From Spirochaetales bacterium (GTDB taxonomy: Bacteria; Spirochaetota; Spirochaetia; SZUA-6; DRHE01), in contig JAFGQJ010000087.1 of NCBI GenBank assembly GCA_016935715.1, forward strand, positions 1 through 34,383: a DNA stretch of 34,383 nucleotides, given 5' to 3'. Under the pieces are notes generated by a model. That model did no database searches and had not been told where the DNA came from. It saw only the letters and a program-made list of their open reading frames with translations. Shown in pieces: positions 22,066-31,915 of this stretch. Position 1 is the first letter of the stretch, and each line of letters opens with the position of its first letter. The position numbers were made by a program, and so were the translations under genes.

Positions 22066-22608
22066 CTACTGCCCGTTCAGGGCGAATCCCCGCTCCAGGC
22101 AGCGCTTGTTGATCTCATTCAGGTTCCTGTGCCTGGCGGAGACAGCCTGGTCCAGGGTCGCCCGGATCGAGTCCAGTGAGGCGATCTCCGGTTTGATGGC
22201 GGCCAGCAGGCCGAGCATGATCATGTTGGCCGAGCGGGCGCTTCCCTCCCGTTCGGCCAGCTCGTTGGCCGGTACGGAAATCCGGCGGATATCCCCCCGG
22301 GAGGGCTCGATATCGATCAGGGAGCTGTTGTACAGCAGGGTGCCGCCCTCCCTGAGCCTGGGCTCGAACTTGATCAGGGAGGGCTTGTTCATCACCACGC
22401 ACACCGAGGGATGGGGAATCACCGGGGAGGCGATCTCCTGGTCGCTGATCACCACCGAGCAGTTGGCCGTGCCGCCACGCATCTCGGCGCCGTAGGACGG
22501 GATGTGGGTGACCCGCTTTCCCTCCTTCATCGCCGCCAGGCAGATGATCGTGCCGGAGAGGATGATGCCCTGGCCGCCGAAACCGGCAAAGATGATTTCT
22601 TCCCGCAT
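22066..22608 (-). CDS. 2-oxoacid:ferredoxin oxidoreductase, gamma subunit
   Basis: 180 aa. The N-terminus IIFAGFGGQGIILSGTIICLAAMKEGKRVTHIPSYGAEMRGGTANCSVVIS is the canonical gamma-subunit N-terminus. Confidence 0.85.
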   Translation of the reverse strand: MREEIIFAGFGGQGIILSGTIICLAAMKEGKRVTHIPSYGAEMRGGTANCSVVISDQEIASPVIPHPSVCVVMNKPSLIKFEPRLREGGTLLYNSSLIDIEPSRGDIRRISVPANELAEREGSARSANMIMLGLLAAIKPEIASLDSIRATLDQAVSARHRNLNEINKRCLERGFALNGQ

Positions 22609-22619
22609 GGCTTACACTC

Positions 22620-23375
22620 CTACCTGTCCCGGAAGTTGCCCAGGGGATAGTAGGCGACCATCTCGGTGCCTACCCACTCCGCCGCAGCCTGGCTGTCCAT
22701 CCCCCAGTTGGTGGGACACATGGACAGGTATTCGACGAAGGAGAAACCCCGGCCCTTGACCTGGTTCTCGATGGCTTTCCGGGTGGCCCGCCTGGCCTTG
22801 AGGATATGGGGGACATCGTGCACCGAGCAGCGCTCGATGAAAACCGGCGCCTCCAGCGTGTTCAGCAGCTCGCAGGCCCGGATCGGCATACCCGCCTCCG
22901 CCGGATTGCGGCCGTAGGGGGACGTCTTGGTCTTCTGTCCGGCCAGAGAGGTCGGGGCCATCTGGCCTCCGGTCATGCCGTAGACGGCGTTGTTCACGAA
23001 CAGGACCGTGATGTTTTCCCCGCGGTTTGCGGTGTGAATCGTCTCCGCGGTGCCGATGGCCAGAAGGTCCCCGTCCCCCTGGTAGGAGATCACCAGCCGG
23101 TCGGGCAGGACCCGCTTGACCCCCGTGGCCACGGCCGGGGCCCGTCCGTGGGCCGCTTCCAATCCGTCGGCGTCGATGTAGTCGTATATCAGAACCGCGC
23201 ATCCCACCGGGGCGATGACTATGGTCCTGCTCCGCATGCCCAGCTCGTCGATGACCTGGGCCATGAGCCTGTGGATGATTCCGTGCCCGCAGCCCGGACA
23301 GTAGTGGGTGGGTACATCGATGAGTGTCTCGGGTCTGGAGAACACCCGTTTGGCTTCTGCGCCTTTAGCTGTCAT
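22620..23375 (-). CDS. 2-oxoacid:ferredoxin oxidoreductase, beta (TPP-binding) subunit
   Basis: 251 aa. [13 protein letters not shown]...[43 protein letters not shown] is the TPP motif GDG...NN. Confidence 0.9.
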
Positions 23376-24435
23376 GGCCTGTTATCCTTTTTATGATCTC
23401 CCGCTCTTCGACGAGCATGGCGCCCATGCGGCCGTAAAACTCGATCGGGACTCTGCCCCCCAGCGCCAGGCGCACATCTTCGAGCATCTGCCCCGCGTTC
23501 ATCTCCACCACGAGCACCTTGCTCTTGCCCTCCGCCTGCTCGAGCAGCTGCCGATAGGGGAAAGGCCAGAGTGTGATCGGACGTAAAAGACCGGCCTTCA
23601 CTCCCGCCTCCCGCAGCTGGTTCACCGCGGCTTTACAGATGCGGGCGGCCAGCCCGAAAGCGACCAGCAGAACTTCCGCGTCCCGGCACTGATAGCATTC
23701 GAAGCGGATCTCCGCGGCTTCGATCTCGCGATACTTTTCCTGGAGACGGAGGTTGATTTTCTCCACCCCGTCCTCCGGCTTGAGCCGCAGCGAAGCGATC
23801 ACCCGGCGTTCGCGGCCCTGCGCGCCGTCGAGGATCCAGGAGGACTTGTCGTACCGCTTCTCCGGCGGCTCGGGCAGAACGAGGGATTCGGACATCTGCC
23901 CGAGATAGCCGTCGCCCAGGATCATGGTCACGATCCGGTACCTGTCGGAGAGGTCGAAGGCGGAGACGGTCAGGTCGGCCAGTTCCTGAACGGAAGCGGG
24001 AGCCAGGACGATCATGTGATAGTCCCCGTGGCCTCCTCCCTTGGTGGCCTGGAAGTAGTCCCCCTGAGCCCCGGAAATATTGCCCAGCCCCGGCCCGCCG
24101 CGCATCATGTTCACCACCACGGCGGGAAGCTCGGTGCCTGCCAGGTAGGAAAGACCCTCCTGTTTGAGGCTGATTCCCGGGGAGCTGGAGGAGGTCATGG
24201 TTCTGCCTCCGGCAGCGGCCGCCCCGAAAACCATGTTGATCGAGGCGATCTCGCTCTCTGCCTGCAGGAAGGTGCCTCCTACCTCGGGCATGCGCCTGGC
24301 CATGTAGGCGGCGATCTCGTTCTGTGGGGTTATCGGATAGGCGAAGTAGTAGCGGCAGCCGGCGATGATCGCCGACTCGGCTATGGCCTCGTTTCCGCGC
24401 ATCAGTACGGGTTGCACCACGGGAATCCCTTTCAA
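23365..24435 (-). CDS. 2-oxoacid:ferredoxin oxidoreductase, alpha subunit
   Basis: [31 protein letters not shown]... is the conserved alpha N-terminus. The track ORF (to 24603) overlaps the delta gene. The likely start is TTG 24435, which overlaps the delta stop by 2 nt; the alternative is ATG 24402. Confidence 0.85.
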
Positions 24436-24656
24436 CTTGCTTTGGCGAAACGCAAGATTTCGATGGCCGTGTCCGGACAGACGATGGCGCAGGACATGCA
24501 CGCCGTGCAGCGGTCCGGATCGAAGCAGACCGCGTAGTGGTGGCCCTGCTCGTTGAACGACTCTGCAAGTTCGAGAATGGCTTCGGGGCAGGCCTTGACG
24601 CACAGGCCGCAGCCCTTGCAGCGCTCCGTGTTGATTTCAGGTTTACCTCTGGCCAA
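24432..24656 (-). CDS. 2-oxoacid:ferredoxin oxidoreductase, delta subunit (2x[4Fe-4S] ferredoxin)
   Basis: 74 aa with two CxxCxxCxxxCP motifs (CKGCGLCVKACP, CTACMSCAIVCP). TTG start with GGGAG 7 nt upstream. Confidence 0.85.
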   Translation of the reverse strand: MARGKPEINTERCKGCGLCVKACPEAILELAESFNEQGHHYAVCFDPDRCTACMSCAIVCPDTAIEILRFAKAS

Positions 24657-24754: not shown

Positions 24755-25621
24755 TCATGAATCTCCCAGCTCGACCCGGCGGGCTCGCTCCCTGAGGGAA
24801 CGGCTGAAGGAGATCCGCGGAGCCGCCTCCTCGGGCCGGGCCGGGACGGTCATCTCCCTGCCCGTGGCCGGATTGACGATCACGCGGGCCTTGCGGGCCG
24901 AGCGCTTCTTCAGGGACAGCCTGCCGATCTTCCCCAGCGGCACCCGTTCGCCGAGCAGCATCCCGGATTCGATCATGGTGAGGTAGTCACCCACGAGACG
25001 ACGGACCTGTTTCTGGGTCATCCCGTTCTTTCGGGCCAGATAGGCGATGATCGCCCGGCTGTTGAACTGCTCTGGCAGCTCCTGCCCGGCGGAGAGAACG
25101 GTCCGGTTGATCTTCACGAAGCCGTTGGTCAAAAAGATGGTCGCCTCCCGGATGCGCTTCTCCTGCTCCTCCGGCGGAACCTCCCGCGGACAGACGGCGA
25201 TCTTCAGCAGCTTCGAGGTGCTTCGAACCTTGCCGCCGCTGAGCTGCGCTTCGCTGTCCAGCCGCACGTCCCCGGCCAGGCCGCTGCCCTCCATGATCAC
25301 AAGGTCCGGAACATCGGCGCGCAGGGAGATGCTGGCGTACTCCACCTGCCTGCCGGCGCCGGCGAGCGTTCCCAGGCTGATCAGGGATCCGGAGTAGGAA
25401 AGCAGCAGAGCTCCCCGGGGATCATCCCTGGAAAAGGACTCCACCTCCTCCATGTCCAGGGCCCGGATCTGGCCTTCGAACATCCGTTTCTTCTCCAGCC
25501 AGACCATGGCCATCTTCTCGAAGGACTCCTCGGTATCGGGAAGTCCCGAGCTGCGGGTGATCGTCTTCAGGTGGGAACGCACCGTGTCGGACAAACCCGC
25601 GATTTCCTCGTTCATCCTCAC
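24755..25621 (-). CDS. Two-domain protein: unrecognised ~170-aa N-domain ('domain X') fused to a C-terminal HU/IHF (DNABII) DNA-binding domain
   Basis: 288 aa. Residues ~187-281 (nt 24779..25063) read NSRAIIAYLARKNGMTQKQVRRLVGDYLTMIESGMLLGERVPLGKIGRLSLKKRSARKARVIVNPATGREMTVPARPEEAAPRISFSRSLRERA. This is the HU layout: helix-turn-helix body, then a beta-arm with R..NP.TG. The N-domain is paralogous to ORF 26092..26622. ATGA overlap with the FHA gene stop. Confidence 0.7.
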   Translation of the reverse strand: MRMNEEIAGLSDTVRSHLKTITRSSGLPDTEESFEKMAMVWLEKKRMFEGQIRALDMEEVESFSRDDPRGALLLSYSGSLISLGTLAGAGRQVEYASISLRADVPDLVIMEGSGLAGDVRLDSEAQLSGGKVRSTSKLLKIAVCPREVPPEEQEKRIREATIFLTNGFVKINRTVLSAGQELPEQFNSRAIIAYLARKNGMTQKQVRRLVGDYLTMIESGMLLGERVPLGKIGRLSLKKRSARKARVIVNPATGREMTVPARPEEAAPRISFSRSLRERARRVELGDS

Positions 25622-25983
25622 TCCTCCTGTTCGCCTTCCTCGATCCCGTGCTCGGCCAGCCAGGATTTGGCGTTCGGCCAGCGGAAGCGCAGCTGCGTCT
25701 TTCCCAGGGTGATCAGGTAGCCGTCCCTGAGGTTCTTCTGGATGTACTGCTTCTCCTTGACCCGGGTCTTGTTCAGGCTGCCGAGATCCATCATGGTGAA
25801 GTGATCACCCCGGAACACGATCTGGCAGTGCTTGCGGGAAACGTAGGGATCCGGGAGGTGCAGGTCACAGTGAGGATCCCTGCCGATCGTCACGGTCTTG
25901 TGGGCGATGGGGAAGGTGTCTCCCTCCCGCTCGCCGCTGAGGATTTCCAGATAGACTTCCGGCGGGAAAAGCTCCGGCTCCAT
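25618..25983 (-). CDS. Small cytoplasmic FHA-domain protein
   Basis: Track ORF trimmed to Met 14 (MEPELFPPEVYLEIL), with AGGAGG 7 nt upstream. TIGRDPHCDLHLPDPYVSRKHCQIVFRGDHFTMMDLGSLNKTRV has all the FHA pThr-binding positions (GR, SxxH, N). Confidence 0.8.
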   Translation of the reverse strand: MEPELFPPEVYLEILSGEREGDTFPIAHKTVTIGRDPHCDLHLPDPYVSRKHCQIVFRGDHFTMMDLGSLNKTRVKEKQYIQKNLRDGYLITLGKTQLRFRWPNAKSWLAEHGIEEGEQEE

Positions 25984-26091
25984 TGTTTTGCCTCCTGATA
26001 CAAGTCTACTCGATACAGGCAAAGAAACAAGAGAAAATATTCGAAAGGTGCGCTATACTAGTAGCAACGCTAAAGCTACGAGGAGGAACCC
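25984..26091. promoter_or_regulatory. Divergent promoter/operator region of the FHA-kinase cluster
   Basis: 108 bp, noticeably less GC-rich than the flanks. Contains direct repeats GATACA at 25997-26002 and 26012-26017, inverted repeat TTTGCCT (25987-25993) / AGGCAAA (26017-26023), a TATACT -10-like hexamer at 26054-26059, and AGGAGG ribosome-binding sites for both divergent genes. Confidence 0.35.
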
Positions 26092-26622
26092 ATGGGCGAG
26101 TACCTGGATCAAATTCCGGCGGAAGTGCAGGATCATATTCGGCAGATAACCAAATCCTCGGGTTTGCCGGACTCCGAGGAATCCGTGGAAATGATCGCCA
26201 AGGGCTGGCTGGAGAAGAAGGAGCTGTTCGAAAACCAGCTGGAGGAGATGGACATGGAGGAGGTGGAGGAGATGGACCGGGAGGACGAGCAGGGCTGCCT
26301 GGCCATGACCTACTCCGGATCGCTTTTGAACGTCGGTCCGATGATCGAGGGAAGCCGCACCGTCCAGTACGCCAGCATCGGACTGCGCCAGGACGTGCCG
26401 GAAACGGCCAGCAAGGAAGGCTCCAGCCTGGCCAGCGACGTGCAGGTCGGAGAGCCGGTGAGCTTCTCCCCCGGACCCATCCAGAGCTCCTCCCCGATCT
26501 TCAAGATCGCCGTGACCACCGGGGACCTGGAGCCGGAGGAGCAGGAAGAGAGAATCACCAAAGCCACCATGATTCTGGCCGAAGGATTCGTCGAGGTGAA
26601 CAAGGACCTCGATTTGGAGTAG
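26092..26622 (+). CDS. Stand-alone 'domain X' protein, paralogue of the N-domain of 24755..25621
   Basis: 176 aa, with AGGAGG 5 nt upstream of the ATG. A gapless hand alignment to the HU-fusion N-domain gives about 79 identities over ~165 positions (e.g. ITKSSGLPDSEES/ITRSSGLPDTEES, WLEKK, DMEEVE, YSGSL, YASI.LR.DVP, KIAV, PEEQE.RI..AT). Confidence 0.7.
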   Translation: MGEYLDQIPAEVQDHIRQITKSSGLPDSEESVEMIAKGWLEKKELFENQLEEMDMEEVEEMDREDEQGCLAMTYSGSLLNVGPMIEGSRTVQYASIGLRQDVPETASKEGSSLASDVQVGEPVSFSPGPIQSSSPIFKIAVTTGDLEPEEQEERITKATMILAEGFVEVNKDLDLE

Positions 26623-26812
26623 AATCAAACTGATACTGGACGAACTTAGGCGGATCTACGCCCGCAGCGCTCCTCCGGAAGCGGAGGAGCTGCTAGAGGA
26701 AACACTGTCGACCATCGAGGTCCTGGACAACGAGCCTCAAGCCACCCGACCCCGCGACGCTCGGGACAGACCCGGCGGGCTGCTGTACCTGGATCCGGGC
26801 CTCCCCACGATC

Positions 26813-27658
26813 GTGGTACCGGATCTGCATGCCCGCATGGATCTGGTCCTGGCCGTGCTGGCGGAGGGAGCGGAGAGCGGCGCTGCGGCGGTGGACCGGC
26901 TGGCCGCCGGGGAGCTTCAAATTCTCTTTCTGGGTGACGCTTTTCACGCCGAAGGGCGGGCAGCCGCCCGCTGGCAGGCGGCGCTGGAGGAGTTCAAGGG
27001 GGGCTACCGCAAGCACGGCCACATGGATGCCGAGATGAGGGAAAGCCTCGGCGTGATGGAGATGGTGATGGCCCTCAAGCGCCGCTTTCCGCAGCACCTT
27101 CACTTCCTCAAGGGCAACCACGAGAACATCGCCAATGAGCAGGGCGGAGGCAACTATCCCTTCCTCAAGTTCGCCAATGAAGGGTTGATGGTGCGCATCT
27201 ACATGGATCACTTCTATGGTGAGAAGACCCTCGAGGCCTACTCCGAGCTGGAGAAGAGCTTCCCGGTCCTGGCTGTCGGGGGGAACTTCCTCGCCTCCCA
27301 CGCCGAACCGGCGTGGTTCATTCCGAGGGAGGAGGTAATCGAGTACCGCAGGATACCCCAGGTGGTGTACGGGTTGACCTGGACCGACAACGGCGAGGCG
27401 GAGCCGGACAGCGTGGAGCGGATGCTGGAACACTACCTGGGGCCGGAAGCCGGCGCCGACGCCTTCCATTTCGGGGGCCACCGCCCGGTGCGCGGCGGCT
27501 ACAACCTCCGCTCCGGCGGCCGCTACGTTCAGATCCACGATCCGGACCGCTACGTCGTGGCCGTGCTGCCGGCGCTCGTTCCCATCGACCTGGACCGGGA
27601 CATCCGGGAACTGGACCCGGAGGCATACAAGAAACTGATCCTGGAACCTGACCAATGA
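26813..27658 (+). CDS. Divergent calcineurin-like metallophosphoesterase (PPP-like Ser/Thr phosphatase candidate); the true start is probably upstream of the track start
   Basis: Motifs appear in the PPP order: VVPDLHA (D.H), FLGDAFHAEG (GD), LKGNHENI (GNHE), LASHAEP (H), FGGHRPV (GH). The stop overlaps the kinase ATG (ATGA). The GTG at 26813 is the second Val of TIVVPDLHA, and the frame is open back to 26600. Confidence 0.7.
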   Translation: MVPDLHARMDLVLAVLAEGAESGAAAVDRLAAGELQILFLGDAFHAEGRAAARWQAALEEFKGGYRKHGHMDAEMRESLGVMEMVMALKRRFPQHLHFLKGNHENIANEQGGGNYPFLKFANEGLMVRIYMDHFYGEKTLEAYSELEKSFPVLAVGGNFLASHAEPAWFIPREEVIEYRRIPQVVYGLTWTDNGEAEPDSVERMLEHYLGPEAGADAFHFGGHRPVRGGYNLRSGGRYVQIHDPDRYVVAVLPALVPIDLDRDIRELDPEAYKKLILEPDQ

Positions 27659-29577: not shown

Positions 29578-29599
29578 AGGCCAATAACGGGAGGTGTCT

Positions 29600-30496
29600 A
29601 TGAGCACGGGAGTGCGCAGATTGATCTTGCTGTGTCTCGGAATACTGGGCGGGGCGGCTGCCTGGCCGCTGGCCGAGCTGGTCGTGGCCTCTCAGGCCCG
29701 CTTCCCCTCGTACCTGTTTTTCATCGCAGTTCTGGGTGCGGCCGTGGGGATGCTGATGGGCGCGTTTTTCGGGTCCGCCGCGGGGATTTTCGCCCGGGTC
29801 GGATCGAGGATCGTTGCCGGCATGCTCGTCGGCGCCCTCGTCGGCCTGATCGGAGGCCTCGTCGGGCTGCTGATCGGACAGGCGGCGCTGTTCCTGATCG
29901 GCGGCCTGTTTCTCGGTCTCGACTCGTACAGAAGCTTCCAGACGATAGGGCTTCCGATCGCCCGGGCGGTGGGCTGGGCCTTCCTGGGAGTATTCGTCGG
30001 GGCGGCCGAAGGCCTGAGGGCCGGCTCGGGCAAGAAGATCGGCATCGGCCTGATCGGCGGTCTGATCGGCGGTTTGATCGGCGGAGCCGTCCTGGAGTAC
30101 TCCCGCCTGTATCTCCCCCCGGCCCTGCCCTCCCGGCTGATCGGCCTGATCGTTCTGGGGCTGGCCATCGGCCTGTTCTACGGGATCATCGAGCGCAGCA
30201 TGGCCTTCGGAACCCTGAGGGTTCTGAACGGCCGTCTGAAGGGTAAGGAGTTCATCCTCAACGAAGGACGGGTCCGAATCGGCCGCGCCCGGCGGAACCA
30301 GATCACCCTGGAGCCCTATGAGAACCTGGCGGACCGCCAGGCCCAGATCCGCTTCCGCAAGGGGGAAGCGGTGCTGACCAACCTGGAGCCGAAGCATCCG
30401 GTGCTGGTCAACGACCGGCCGGTCACGGAACAGCGCCTCAAGTACGAGGATGTCCTGAAGATCGGCTCGGCCAAGCTTTTCTACCAGTACGAGTAG
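29600..30496 (+). CDS. Polytopic glycine-zipper membrane protein with C-terminal cytoplasmic FHA domain
   Basis: ATG 29600 has GGGAGG 5 nt upstream (the track starts at GTG 29594). About 6 Gly/Ala/Leu-rich TM helices (GMLVGALVGLIGGLVGLLIG, GLIGGLIGGLIGG), then an FHA-like region LRVLNGRLKGKEFILNEGRVRIGRARRNQITLEP....VLVNDRPV. Confidence 0.8.
   Translation: MSTGVRRLILLCLGILGGAAAWPLAELVVASQARFPSYLFFIAVLGAAVGMLMGAFFGSAAGIFARVGSRIVAGMLVGALVGLIGGLVGLLIGQAALFLIGGLFLGLDSYRSFQTIGLPIARAVGWAFLGVFVGAAEGLRAGSGKKIGIGLIGGLIGGLIGGAVLEYSRLYLPPALPSRLIGLIVLGLAIGLFYGIIERSMAFGTLRVLNGRLKGKEFILNEGRVRIGRARRNQITLEPYENLADRQAQIRFRKGEAVLTNLEPKHPVLVNDRPVTEQRLKYEDVLKIGSAKLFYQYE
30050..30085 (+). repeat. 3 x 12-bp in-frame tandem repeat (ctgatcggcggt / ctgatcggcggt / ttgatcggcgga) encoding (LIGG)3
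   Basis: Read directly from the sequence, inside the TM-FHA gene. The first two units are identical and the third has 2 mismatches. Confidence 0.8.
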
Positions 30497-30511: not shown

Positions 30512-31915
30512 ATGAAACGAATAATAACAGCGGCGGCCCTGATCCTGTTCGGCTCTGCGACTCTCTCCGGCTACAACGTACGCCTGTCCCAGATCGATGC
30601 CTCCCGGCTGCTGCTCAGCCAGACCGTTCGGCTGTACGTCAGCGTCACCGACGATCTGGGCGTGCCGGTTGACCGGCTGGAGCAGGGAAGCTTCACGATC
30701 TTCGAGTCCCCCGATGGCCTGGAGTTCCGCAGAATCGAGGGACTGACCGAGTTCAAGCCCCGGGCCGCCTCGGCCGATGGGATCAGCTTCCTGCTTCTCA
30801 TCGACAACTCGGGGAGCATGTACGACACCCTGGACGGGCGTCCCACCGAGGAGGCGGGGCGCATGCGCATCACCCATGCCAGGAACGCGGTGCGCACCTT
30901 CCTGGGCAGCATGACCCAGCCCAGGGACACGGTAGGCCTGGCGTCCTACAATACTTCCTACACCCGGCTGGCCGCCCCCTCGGGGGACAAGGCTCGGCTG
31001 GCCGGCTTCCTCGACGGCATCGAGAGGCCGGACCCGGAGCAGGCTTACACGGAGCTGTACGCAGCCCTGACCCTGGGGGTGGAGGATTTCGAAGGCATCG
31101 GCGGGCGCAGGGCTATCATCATCCTCTCCGACGGAGAGAACTACCCCTACTTCGAACGTTCGGGCAAGCCCCATCCGAGCCACGGGACCAGGACCTACCG
31201 CTACACCGAGCCGATCCAGGCCTGTCAGGAGGCCGGCATCTCGGTGTACGCGGTGAATTTCGCCGCCCAGAAGGATCCCAACCTGGAGGCGATCGCCGTG
31301 GAGACCGGGGGCACCGTGTTCGACGCCCGCAGCCAGGAGGAGCTGGCCCGGGTCTACCAGCGCATCCACGAGCAGGTGGCCGGGGAGTACCTGATCGGCT
31401 ACCGGGCAACCATGGCGCCGGCGGAGCGCAAATTCGTGCGGGTGCAGGTGGAGCAGCAGGGCCGGCTGGATCAGGCCACGCGCTTCTACTTCTCCAGCAC
31501 CGTTTTCGGCCTTCCCCGCCGGCCTCTCAGCGCCCTCCTGATCATCCCCTTCGTGCTGGCCTTCGTTCTGCTCTGGCTGATCTCCCTGCTGAAATTCGAG
31601 AAGAAGAGGGGACCGGCGACCCTTGAGGTGCTCAAGACCAGGGTGGGCCGGGCCCAGACCAGGGTGATGCCCCTGGGCACGGCCAAGACCGTGATCGGCG
31701 GCAGCCGCAGCGCCGACCTGACGATCGTGGGCAACCCGAACGTCAGGGAACGGCACGCCACGGTGGTATACGACGCCAAGAAAAAGGCCTATACGGTGGT
31801 GGGTTCGGGGGACCTGACGGTCAACAACCGGCCGGTGAAGACCAAGGTGCTCGAGCCGGGGGATGTGATCGACGTGGGCGGGGCCACCATCGTGTTCGAC
31901 GACGGGGAGGTGTAG
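30512..31915 (+). CDS. Signal peptide, extracytoplasmic vWA domain, TM helix and cytoplasmic FHA domain protein
   Basis: 467 aa. Signal MKRIITAAALILFGSATLSG. MIDAS motif LLLIDNSGSM with downstream ...IILSDGEN. TM helix LSALLIIPFVLAFVLLWLISLL. C-terminal FHA-like region TVIGGSRSADLTIVGNPNVRERHATVVYD....LTVNNRPV. Confidence 0.85.
   Translation: MKRIITAAALILFGSATLSGYNVRLSQIDASRLLLSQTVRLYVSVTDDLGVPVDRLEQGSFTIFESPDGLEFRRIEGLTEFKPRAASADGISFLLLIDNSGSMYDTLDGRPTEEAGRMRITHARNAVRTFLGSMTQPRDTVGLASYNTSYTRLAAPSGDKARLAGFLDGIERPDPEQAYTELYAALTLGVEDFEGIGGRRAIIILSDGENYPYFERSGKPHPSHGTRTYRYTEPIQACQEAGISVYAVNFAAQKDPNLEAIAVETGGTVFDARSQEELARVYQRIHEQVAGEYLIGYRATMAPAERKFVRVQVEQQGRLDQATRFYFSSTVFGLPRRPLSALLIIPFVLAFVLLWLISLLKFEKKRGPATLEVLKTRVGRAQTRVMPLGTAKTVIGGSRSADLTIVGNPNVRERHATVVYDAKKKAYTVVGSGDLTVNNRPVKTKVLEPGDVIDVGGATIVFDDGEV

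Follow-up and report, generated by a model that had tools for sequence, protein, structure and literature searches.

An undescribed domain, stand-alone and fused to HU/IHF, at a conserved kinase–phosphatase–FHA operon of uncultured Spirochaetota

A 34,383-nt contig of a Spirochaetales bacterium (JAFGQJ010000087.1, GenBank assembly GCA_016935715.1; the window hereafter, meaning this whole stretch of DNA) encodes two paralogous copies of a ~170-aa domain that we could assign to no described family. One copy, S, consists of this orphan domain and nothing else, and opens a plus-strand operon that continues with genes for a calcineurin-like metallophosphatase, a membrane Ser/Thr kinase of the Hanks type and two membrane-anchored FHA proteins, one of which also has a vWA domain. 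The other copy, H, carries an HU/IHF (DNABII) domain at its C-terminus and is encoded on the minus strand, the minus-strand gene pair to which it belongs and the plus-strand operon diverging from a 108-bp spacer. What is new here is the domain family and the unusual HU architecture, the kind of signalling operon that houses both being known. We judge it probable, by a modest degree, that S and H are soluble cytoplasmic partners of the kinase/phosphatase/FHA cluster, with H as its DNA-linked output and S as a copy devoid of output.

Comparison of S with H (residues 3–173 of the 288-aa open reading frame, ORF) by BLASTP gave 81 identical and 116 positive positions of 171 (47% identity, E 5e-50) and no gaps, in agreement with the gapless hand count of about 79 of 165 in the first-pass annotation of this DNA, and the paralogy is visible even in the nucleotide sequence as inverted repeats (25439–25550 versus 26157–26268; 112 nt, 76% complementary). 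That annotation had also placed the end of the stand-alone copy exactly where the linker of the fused copy begins, which the AlphaFold2 model of H bears out: the last helix of the shared domain runs to about residue 170, residues 176–183 form a low-confidence linker, the sole long stretch of this kind between the domains, and the HU helices start at 186, while S ends at residue 176. The conserved blocks it had listed are real in the window pair and unequally conserved across the family. Its statement that both paralogues flank the divergent promoter holds for S, which borders the control region, but not for H, because a gene for a small FHA protein lies between. Across the family, mean identity was 0.56 within S, 0.55 within H and 0.39 between S and H, and 283 of 298 sequences had their nearest neighbour within their own class. 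By these sequence comparisons S and H are two distinct, anciently duplicated subfamilies, the duplication being older than the radiation of these lineages. Their architectures are a stand-alone protein of ~175 aa for S and one of ~283–305 aa with a C-terminal HU domain for H. The S homologues (n = 297) are nearly all ~176 aa long, a few reaching ~206 aa or being truncated, and contain no Pfam domain. In public annotation H appears as 'HU family DNA-binding protein' or 'nucleoid DNA-binding protein', and S as 'hypothetical'.

The first-pass annotation could not assign the shared domain to any family, and neither could we. Pfam gave no match at E ≤0.001 among 29 diverse domain members, NCBIfam and PADLOC scans of S and H returned nothing for this domain, and we found no paper describing the domain or the architecture. 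(Matches of the kinase to the PADLOC PD-T4-6 models were discounted, these being generic kinase models.) A profile search of the PDB with the shared domain yielded a single match, to a proteasome beta-2 subunit (E 0.008, around YSGS), which we attribute to chance, given that the fold does not support it and that no other proteasome sequence in the PDB matched. The AlphaFold2 model of S (pLDDT 86.9, pTM 0.84) has two helices (10–22 and 29–52), seven strands within residues 56–141 and a long helix at 148–175. With this model, Foldseek returned best E-values of 0.17 (PDB) and 0.10 (BFVD) and TM-scores ≤0.30; its insignificant matches to Bet v 1/PYL, profilin, GAF and the PilZ-containing BcsA/PlzA are leads and not evidence, and the PilZ motifs RxxxR and DxSxxG were absent from the domain when inspected by eye. 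Nor does the predicted topology of S correspond to the four-layer alpha-beta-beta-alpha fold of Ntn hydrolases, of which Foldseek found no match, or to the (beta-alpha)5 arrangement of receiver domains, for which there was no Response_reg match either. Judging from the model, the fold is possibly new.

Searching 1.84 billion cluster representatives with a hidden Markov model retrieved 196 relatives at E ≤0.001, and the ~170 genomic loci retrieved all lie in metagenome-assembled genomes (MAGs) of Spirochaetota, namely Spirochaetaceae, Sediminispirochaeta-like bacteria, Alkalispirochaeta, Treponematales and one Leptospirales bin; three genome scans for a cultured host gave MAGs only and no isolate. 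The shared domain is an undescribed alpha/beta family seen so far only in uncultured Spirochaetota. Two members, P0259 and P0278, have long low-complexity insertions rich in Gly, Ser, Ala and Glu after the SGSL...GP hairpin, which marks the loop near residue 85 as exposed at the surface and tolerant of large insertions.

The C-terminus of H, in contrast to its N-terminal domain, is readily assigned and is a genuine HU/IHF domain, as the first-pass annotation had it, with Pfam, sequence matches in the PDB and Foldseek in agreement. PF00216 (Bac_DNA_binding) matched residues 188–279 with E 3e-13 (50.2 bits against a cut-off of 22.4), and the best of the solved HU structures in a phmmer search was Thermotoga maritima HU (1b8z, E 1.8e-6). 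The AlphaFold2 model of H (pLDDT 79) matched Anabaena HU–DNA, IHF and Borrelia Hbb with a Foldseek probability of 1.00 and TM(target) of 0.6–0.87. Its HU part is predicted to form helices 186–196 and 201–220, four strands and a helix at 272–279, that is, the two-helix stalk, the sheet with a long beta-hairpin arm and the C-terminal helix of the DNABII fold. K242, A243, R244, N248 and P249 are invariant in 29 H orthologues, giving the basic arm and the conserved, intercalating arm-tip proline of this family, and N248-P249 aligns with the NP of T. maritima HU. Relative to the latter, each strand of the H arm has a three-residue insertion (ARKARVIVNP... and ...VPARPEEAAPR), which predicts a longer DNA-embracing arm. 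Classical HU/IHF proteins, including Borrelia Hbb, measure ~90–100 aa and have no extension beyond a low-complexity tail (Burroughs et al. 2017, PMC5499826); they share with H the DNABII signature and fold, which in H occupy the ~95 C-terminal residues, and the arm-tip Asn-Pro, but have neither its 170-aa folded N-terminal domain nor the lengthened arm. That survey of HU diversity makes no mention of kinase or FHA associations.

Gene context was examined by tBLASTn of the window proteins against all loci (79 + 80 + 13, all from Spirochaetota MAGs), with counts given as unique gene copies. The order S–(phosphatase)–kinase–TMFHA–vWAFHA recurred nearly everywhere. Among S genes with at least 3.2 kb of sequence downstream, the kinase followed in 85 of 92 and the phosphatase was directly next in 76 of 92, and where at least 6 kb was available the kinase and both membrane FHA genes were present in 67 of 72; at least three of the seven S genes lacking the kinase are H copies misclassified by the script. 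Co-occurrence with kinase and FHA genes, which the first-pass annotation had named as a check on its proposal, is therefore the rule in this family. H was divergently adjacent to S in 65 of 96 cases, convergent at the 3' end of the operon in five, on the same strand as S in one and unlinked in 11, each of these with 6 kb or more of sequence on either side, the remaining 14 being on contigs too short to judge; we found no conserved neighbour of the unlinked H genes. In distant lineages, too (L060, L063, L075 and L112), H can be immediately preceded by a small FHA gene. In the window operon itself, which is of the Hanks-kinase/FHA/phosphatase type with Pkinase and Metallophos domains and three FHA domains at the locus, Pfam scans revealed no other DNA-binding protein and no other soluble non-enzyme candidate for an output.

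Two rarer arrangements are informative. The 701-aa protein P0303, found on eight contigs (L157/L158, 8001–10106), combines a vWA domain, a transmembrane helix, the orphan domain and a tail of ~125 aa, so that the orphan domain occupies the place that the cytoplasmic FHA domain has in the vWA protein of the window; its neighbours are a TM-FHA gene and a gene for a HAMP-nucleotidyl cyclase, and the kinase is absent from the locus. At L159 (8001–9528), the gene for a very divergent S (31% identity) overlaps that for a 47%-identical metallophosphatase. The pair comes immediately after flaA-cheA-cheW/cheR-cheX-cheY and before DUF3276 and SMC genes, and its surroundings contain neither a kinase nor an FHA gene. 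In that lineage, this context suggests a possible connection with motility or chemotaxis.

Features of the S/H locus in the window (positions are those of the 34,383-nt stretch; TM, transmembrane).
Feature	Position	Strand	Evidence
S, stand-alone paralogue, 176 aa, whole protein is the orphan domain, first gene of plus-strand operon	26092..26622	+	ORF; BLASTP versus H
H, whole gene, 286 aa from ATG 25615; ORF open from GTG 25621 (288 aa, 24755-25621)	24755..25615	-	
Orphan domain of H, residues 1 to ~173 of the 286-aa protein; predicted topology as in S	25097..25615	-	
HU/IHF (DNABII) domain of H	24785..25060	-	Pfam PF00216; PDB HU matches; Foldseek
Small soluble FHA protein (FHA134), ~121 aa from ATG 25983; ORF open to 26022	25618..25983	-	Pfam FHA E 3.5e-17
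Divergent control region, 108 bp	25984..26091	.	Sequence; alignment with nine close relatives
Calcineurin-like metallophosphatase, 342 aa if start is CTG 26630; ORF list gave only 26813-27658	26630..27658	+	Pfam PF00149
Membrane Ser/Thr protein kinase, 640 aa	27655..29577	+	Pfam Pkinase E 1e-54
Polytopic membrane protein with C-terminal FHA (TM-FHA)	29594..30496	+	Pfam FHA E 2.8e-8, Yop-YscD_cpl E 9e-13
vWA domain, hydrophobic (predicted transmembrane) segment, C-terminal FHA (vWA-TM-FHA)	30512..31915	+	Pfam VWA E 1e-11, FHA E 1.2e-4

On both sides of the control region the genes are tightly packed. H comes second in the minus-strand pair, and its most likely start, judged from the sequence and used in the database call P0121, is the ATG that lies two bases after the TGA of the small FHA gene, behind GGAGGAG. 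Because the FHA stop is only 2 nt from this start, the small FHA gene and H are probably translationally coupled. The probable ATG of the small FHA gene is itself preceded by GGAGG, and the control region separates this gene, not H, from S. On the plus strand, an apparent gap of 190 bp after S (26600–26812) proved to be coding, for a phosphatase N-terminal extension of ~60 residues that is conserved in all relatives, most phosphatase homologues being ~338 aa long. Neither the window nor its ten closest relatives have an ATG, GTG or TTG at the homologous start position, and in the NCBI annotation of the closest complete genome the phosphatase starts at a CTG just past the S stop (P0394). The equivalent CTG in the window (26630) lies 8 nt past the S stop, with a GGAG at 26616–26619 inside the last S codons. 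This CTG is likely to be the phosphatase start, and S and phosphatase are, to judge from this layout, probably coupled in translation. Such a CTG-only start would also account for the many gene calls in close relatives that are shortened to 273–278 aa. A +1 frameshift joining S to the phosphatase, whose frame is open from inside S, was considered and rejected in favour of the CTG start, since no slippery site is evident, no S–phosphatase fusion occurs among the homologues listed and NCBI uses the CTG. Downstream of H on the minus strand (22066–24656), ORFs that by eye resemble a 2-oxoacid:ferredoxin oxidoreductase set follow, beginning with a small 4Fe-4S ferredoxin-like ORF (24432–24656) and continuing with alpha-, beta- and gamma-like subunits; this neighbourhood is not kept in other lineages. 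Rfam found no RNA family within the window.

The 108-bp control region, aligned with nine close relatives, contains an invariant −10-like TATACT (26054–26059) preceded by GGTG, an A-rich block AAAGAAACAAG at about 26021–26031 and the ribosome-binding site of S, GAGGAGG (26080–26086). In distant relatives, a GCTATACT-type −10 element faces both genes, back to back. The window and locus L001 are without ~22 bp (CGCTGTCCTTTCTC...) that most close relatives have upstream of the invariant GGTGxGxTATACT, and so the promoter is probably of the extended −10 type and independent of a conserved −35 box. When H–S intergenic regions were searched across lineages for a shared operator, only promoter-like −10 elements recurred. 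In five loci (L067, L076, L117, L078 and L074; one titled Treponema sp., one Treponematales and the rest Spirochaetota/Spirochaetaceae), an AT-rich inverted repeat, TTTTTCA(N~20)TGAAAAA, lies between the two divergent −10 boxes. This element, which could be an operator, is lineage-specific and absent from the clade of the window.

The enzymes and FHA proteins of the cluster have the expected hallmarks to differing extents. PF00149 matched the metallophosphatase with 27.1 bits (cut-off 21.5), its motifs DxH, GD and GNHE are present, and its best, weak sequence match in the PDB is the PPP Ser/Thr phosphatase BSU1 (E 0.035). The kinase, with its HRD and DFG motifs, has the catalytic domain at residues 18–265, a single hydrophobic segment near residue 300 and a C-terminal region of ~300 aa. 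Of the three FHA domains, only that of the small soluble protein has the full GR / SxxH / N set in a three-sequence alignment.

Conservation within the shared domain was scored over 150 S and 146 H sequences, and it bears directly on the proposal of the first-pass annotation that the N-terminal block ITRSSGLPDTEES is a phospho-acceptor and FHA-docking site. Position 20 is Thr in 82% of S but in only 41% of H, Ser23 is kept in 85% of each, and position 28 is Thr in 61% of S and 75% of H. The most conserved residues of the block are Gly24 and Leu25, invariant in one or both alignments, and in the models it forms the turn between helices 1 and 2. It is unrecognisable in six divergent members and in the FHA-linked H of distant lineages, and this includes HU-fused copies directly downstream of the small FHA gene (L060, L063). 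The case for the block as such a site is thereby weakened: it is clade-specific, may be used in the window's own clade, and does not define the family. Conserved at ≥90% in both subfamilies are instead H15, W39, K42, F46, G68, S75-G76-S77-L78, R89, Y93, S95, I96, R99, D101-V102-P103, G128, S134, F166 and N170, and Ser or Thr occupies positions 73 and 133 in ~100% of both. The divergent members examined keep [TS]xSGS[LI], R89, YxS, RxDVP (R..VP), GP and [ST]S134; the LRxDVP segment is highly conserved and falls in the least confident loop of the models. If the family has a conserved phosphosite, the SGS hairpin, S95 or [ST]133-S134 would, on this pattern, be better candidates than ITRSSGLPDTEES.

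The first-pass annotation had cast both proteins as substrates or adaptors of the neighbouring kinase, one of them coupling the signal to DNA. Gene context supports this general idea, with ITRSSGLPDTEES removed as its defining site, and makes it very likely that both proteins belong to the neighbouring kinase system. None of the three outcomes that the annotation had named as refuting it came about: the domain maps to no characterised family, its homologues do occur with kinase and FHA genes, and the C-terminal segment of H models as a DNABII fold. In the reading we favour, the cluster would be an envelope-spanning system of membrane Hanks-type kinase, PPP-like metallophosphatase and membrane-anchored FHA and vWA–FHA proteins, joined in some clades by the small soluble FHA protein, and the orphan domain would be its soluble cytoplasmic partner module. 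H would be the output, its HU domain dimerising and bending DNA, and the state of its N-terminal domain would set where or how well it binds; candidate states are phosphorylation, binding by FHA, kinase or phosphatase, and pairing with S. S, a module without output made together with the phosphatase, would most likely act as competitor, sink or hetero-oligomer partner of H, or else as regulatory subunit or substrate of the phosphatase. We base a partner role on the near-invariant position in the operon, the two tight gene couplings, the fusion in P0303 in which the domain replaces an FHA domain, and the lack of any other output protein. More tentatively, and with doubt outweighing confidence, we suggest that the domain is a new signal-receiving module for Hanks-type kinase/phosphatase systems or for a second messenger, such that the fusion to HU turns an envelope signal into DNA bending and S serves as a decoy or sink.

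Several observations sit uneasily with a kinase-partner role. The 11 H genes that have no S or kinase gene within 6 kb indicate that H can be encoded outside the operon, and about one locus in six lacks a phosphatase beside S. In the membrane FHA domains GR is replaced by GG and SxxH by AxxQ or RxxH, and the Asn is missing; the alignment of three sequences is weak ground, but part of the system may not read phosphothreonine. The N-terminal Thr/Ser block is not conserved, the sequences allow no phosphosite to be assigned, and no conserved N-terminal phosphothreonine motif of the GarA/OdhI type exists among the S and H sequences scored. Finally, the near-invariant H15, K42, R89, Y93, R99, D101, S75, S77, S134 and N170, all polar, resemble a ligand-binding or catalytic site more than a simple docking surface.

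This last point leads to the main rival, which we regard as rather unlikely: the domain would serve as receptor for a small anionic ligand, such as a nucleotide of cyclic or linear form, and the metallophosphoesterase as the phosphodiesterase that removes it, H being a ligand-controlled DNA bender, S a ligand buffer and the kinase/FHA proteins a parallel or upstream layer. The same polar residues, together with S95 and the complete S75-G-S77, are common to both subfamilies and to the most divergent members; the pair of S and metallophosphoesterase persists without kinase and FHA genes downstream of the che operon at L159; the P0303 locus has a cyclase gene and no kinase; and the weak Foldseek leads, none of them significant, are to ligand-binding folds (Bet v 1/PYL, GAF, PilZ-containing). 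The calcineurin-like superfamily, moreover, includes class III cyclic nucleotide monophosphate phosphodiesterases. However, no ligand-binding family emerged by sequence or fold, the association with a cyclase is confined to a single lineage, and in the large majority of loci counted above the pair belongs to a kinase operon, a setting in which one expects a protein phosphatase. The best, if weak, sequence match of the metallophosphatase in the PDB is, as stated, the Ser/Thr phosphatase BSU1. Catalysis by the domain itself, for example as a hydrolase of Ser/His/Asp type or Ntn-like kind with a signalling substrate, seems very improbable to us. The invariance of H15, D101 and several serines and the borderline proteasome match around YSGS could be taken that way, but only one of many proteasome sequences in the PDB matched, the S topology (two helices, seven strands and one helix in 176 aa) gave no hydrolase in Foldseek, and there is no obvious rationale for fusing an enzyme to HU and keeping a stand-alone duplicate.

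A further alternative, to which we give somewhat less credence than to a ligand receptor, dispenses with post-translational control: H would be a specialised nucleoid-associated or architectural protein whose N-terminal domain oligomerises or bridges, S would cap or limit this, and the linkage to the kinase would reflect co-regulation from the shared divergent promoter. HU proteins are obligate dimers, so that adding a self-associating domain would give bridging (the fold here being modelled), H is unlinked in the 11 loci already mentioned, and the −10 elements of the two genes are of the same GCTATACT type. This alternative does not explain, however, that S almost always comes first in the kinase operon and is coupled to the phosphatase, that the domain is fused to a vWA–transmembrane protein where FHA would otherwise stand, or that several distant lineages couple a small FHA gene to H.

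Known systems offer partial parallels. In mycobacteria, phosphorylation of the HU-type protein HupB by Ser/Thr kinases abolishes DNA binding (review PMC4754617), a precedent for an HU under Hanks-type kinase control. In HupB, however, the modification falls on an otherwise ordinary HU that has a basic C-terminal tail, and the protein is encoded apart from its kinases. The spirochaete system, in which phosphorylation is conjectured, instead combines an additional domain of its own, a free-standing paralogue and an operon of constant order. The Sulfolobus ArnA/ArnB–ArnC/D–PP2A network, which consists of FHA and vWA proteins, Hanks-type kinases and a phosphatase and affects gene expression, and the comparable vWA–kinase–FHA–phosphatase operon of Deinococcus (DRA0331–0334) resemble the cluster as a whole (PMC6509490, PMC7472852, bioRxiv 10.64898/2026.01.23.701218). 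As these sources describe them, neither system has the S/H domain or an HU fusion, and the Deinococcus phosphatase is of the PP2C type rather than a calcineurin-like metallophosphatase; in the spirochaete cluster, the vWA protein and one FHA protein are membrane-anchored. Pairs of a single-domain and a DNA-binding response regulator are similar in that one domain occurs both alone and fused to a DNA output beside signalling enzymes. To two-component receivers this is an analogy only, with no relation in sequence or fold, and the chemistry of S/H, if any, would be Ser/Thr phosphorylation.

So far the family is known from uncultured spirochaetes only, and everything we say about its function derives from gene context. 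With that said, most outputs of bacterial Hanks-type kinases have yet to be found, and few of these kinases have a dedicated, co-encoded DNA-binding effector. Here a candidate pathway would begin at the periplasmic ectodomains of vWA protein and kinase, proceed through FHA, kinase and phosphatase proteins in the cytoplasm and end at an HU-type DNA bender, and an undescribed domain, in two forms, stands at the junction of this compact and strongly conserved set. Should the domain be a signal receiver, S and H would be the Ser/Thr-kinase counterpart of the pairing of response regulator and single-domain receiver, built on a fold without known relatives. If our reading is correct, it would add a new domain family, possibly with a new fold, and an unusual way of regulating a nucleoid-type protein, and several hundred proteins now labelled 'HU family DNA-binding protein' or 'hypothetical protein' would become annotatable.

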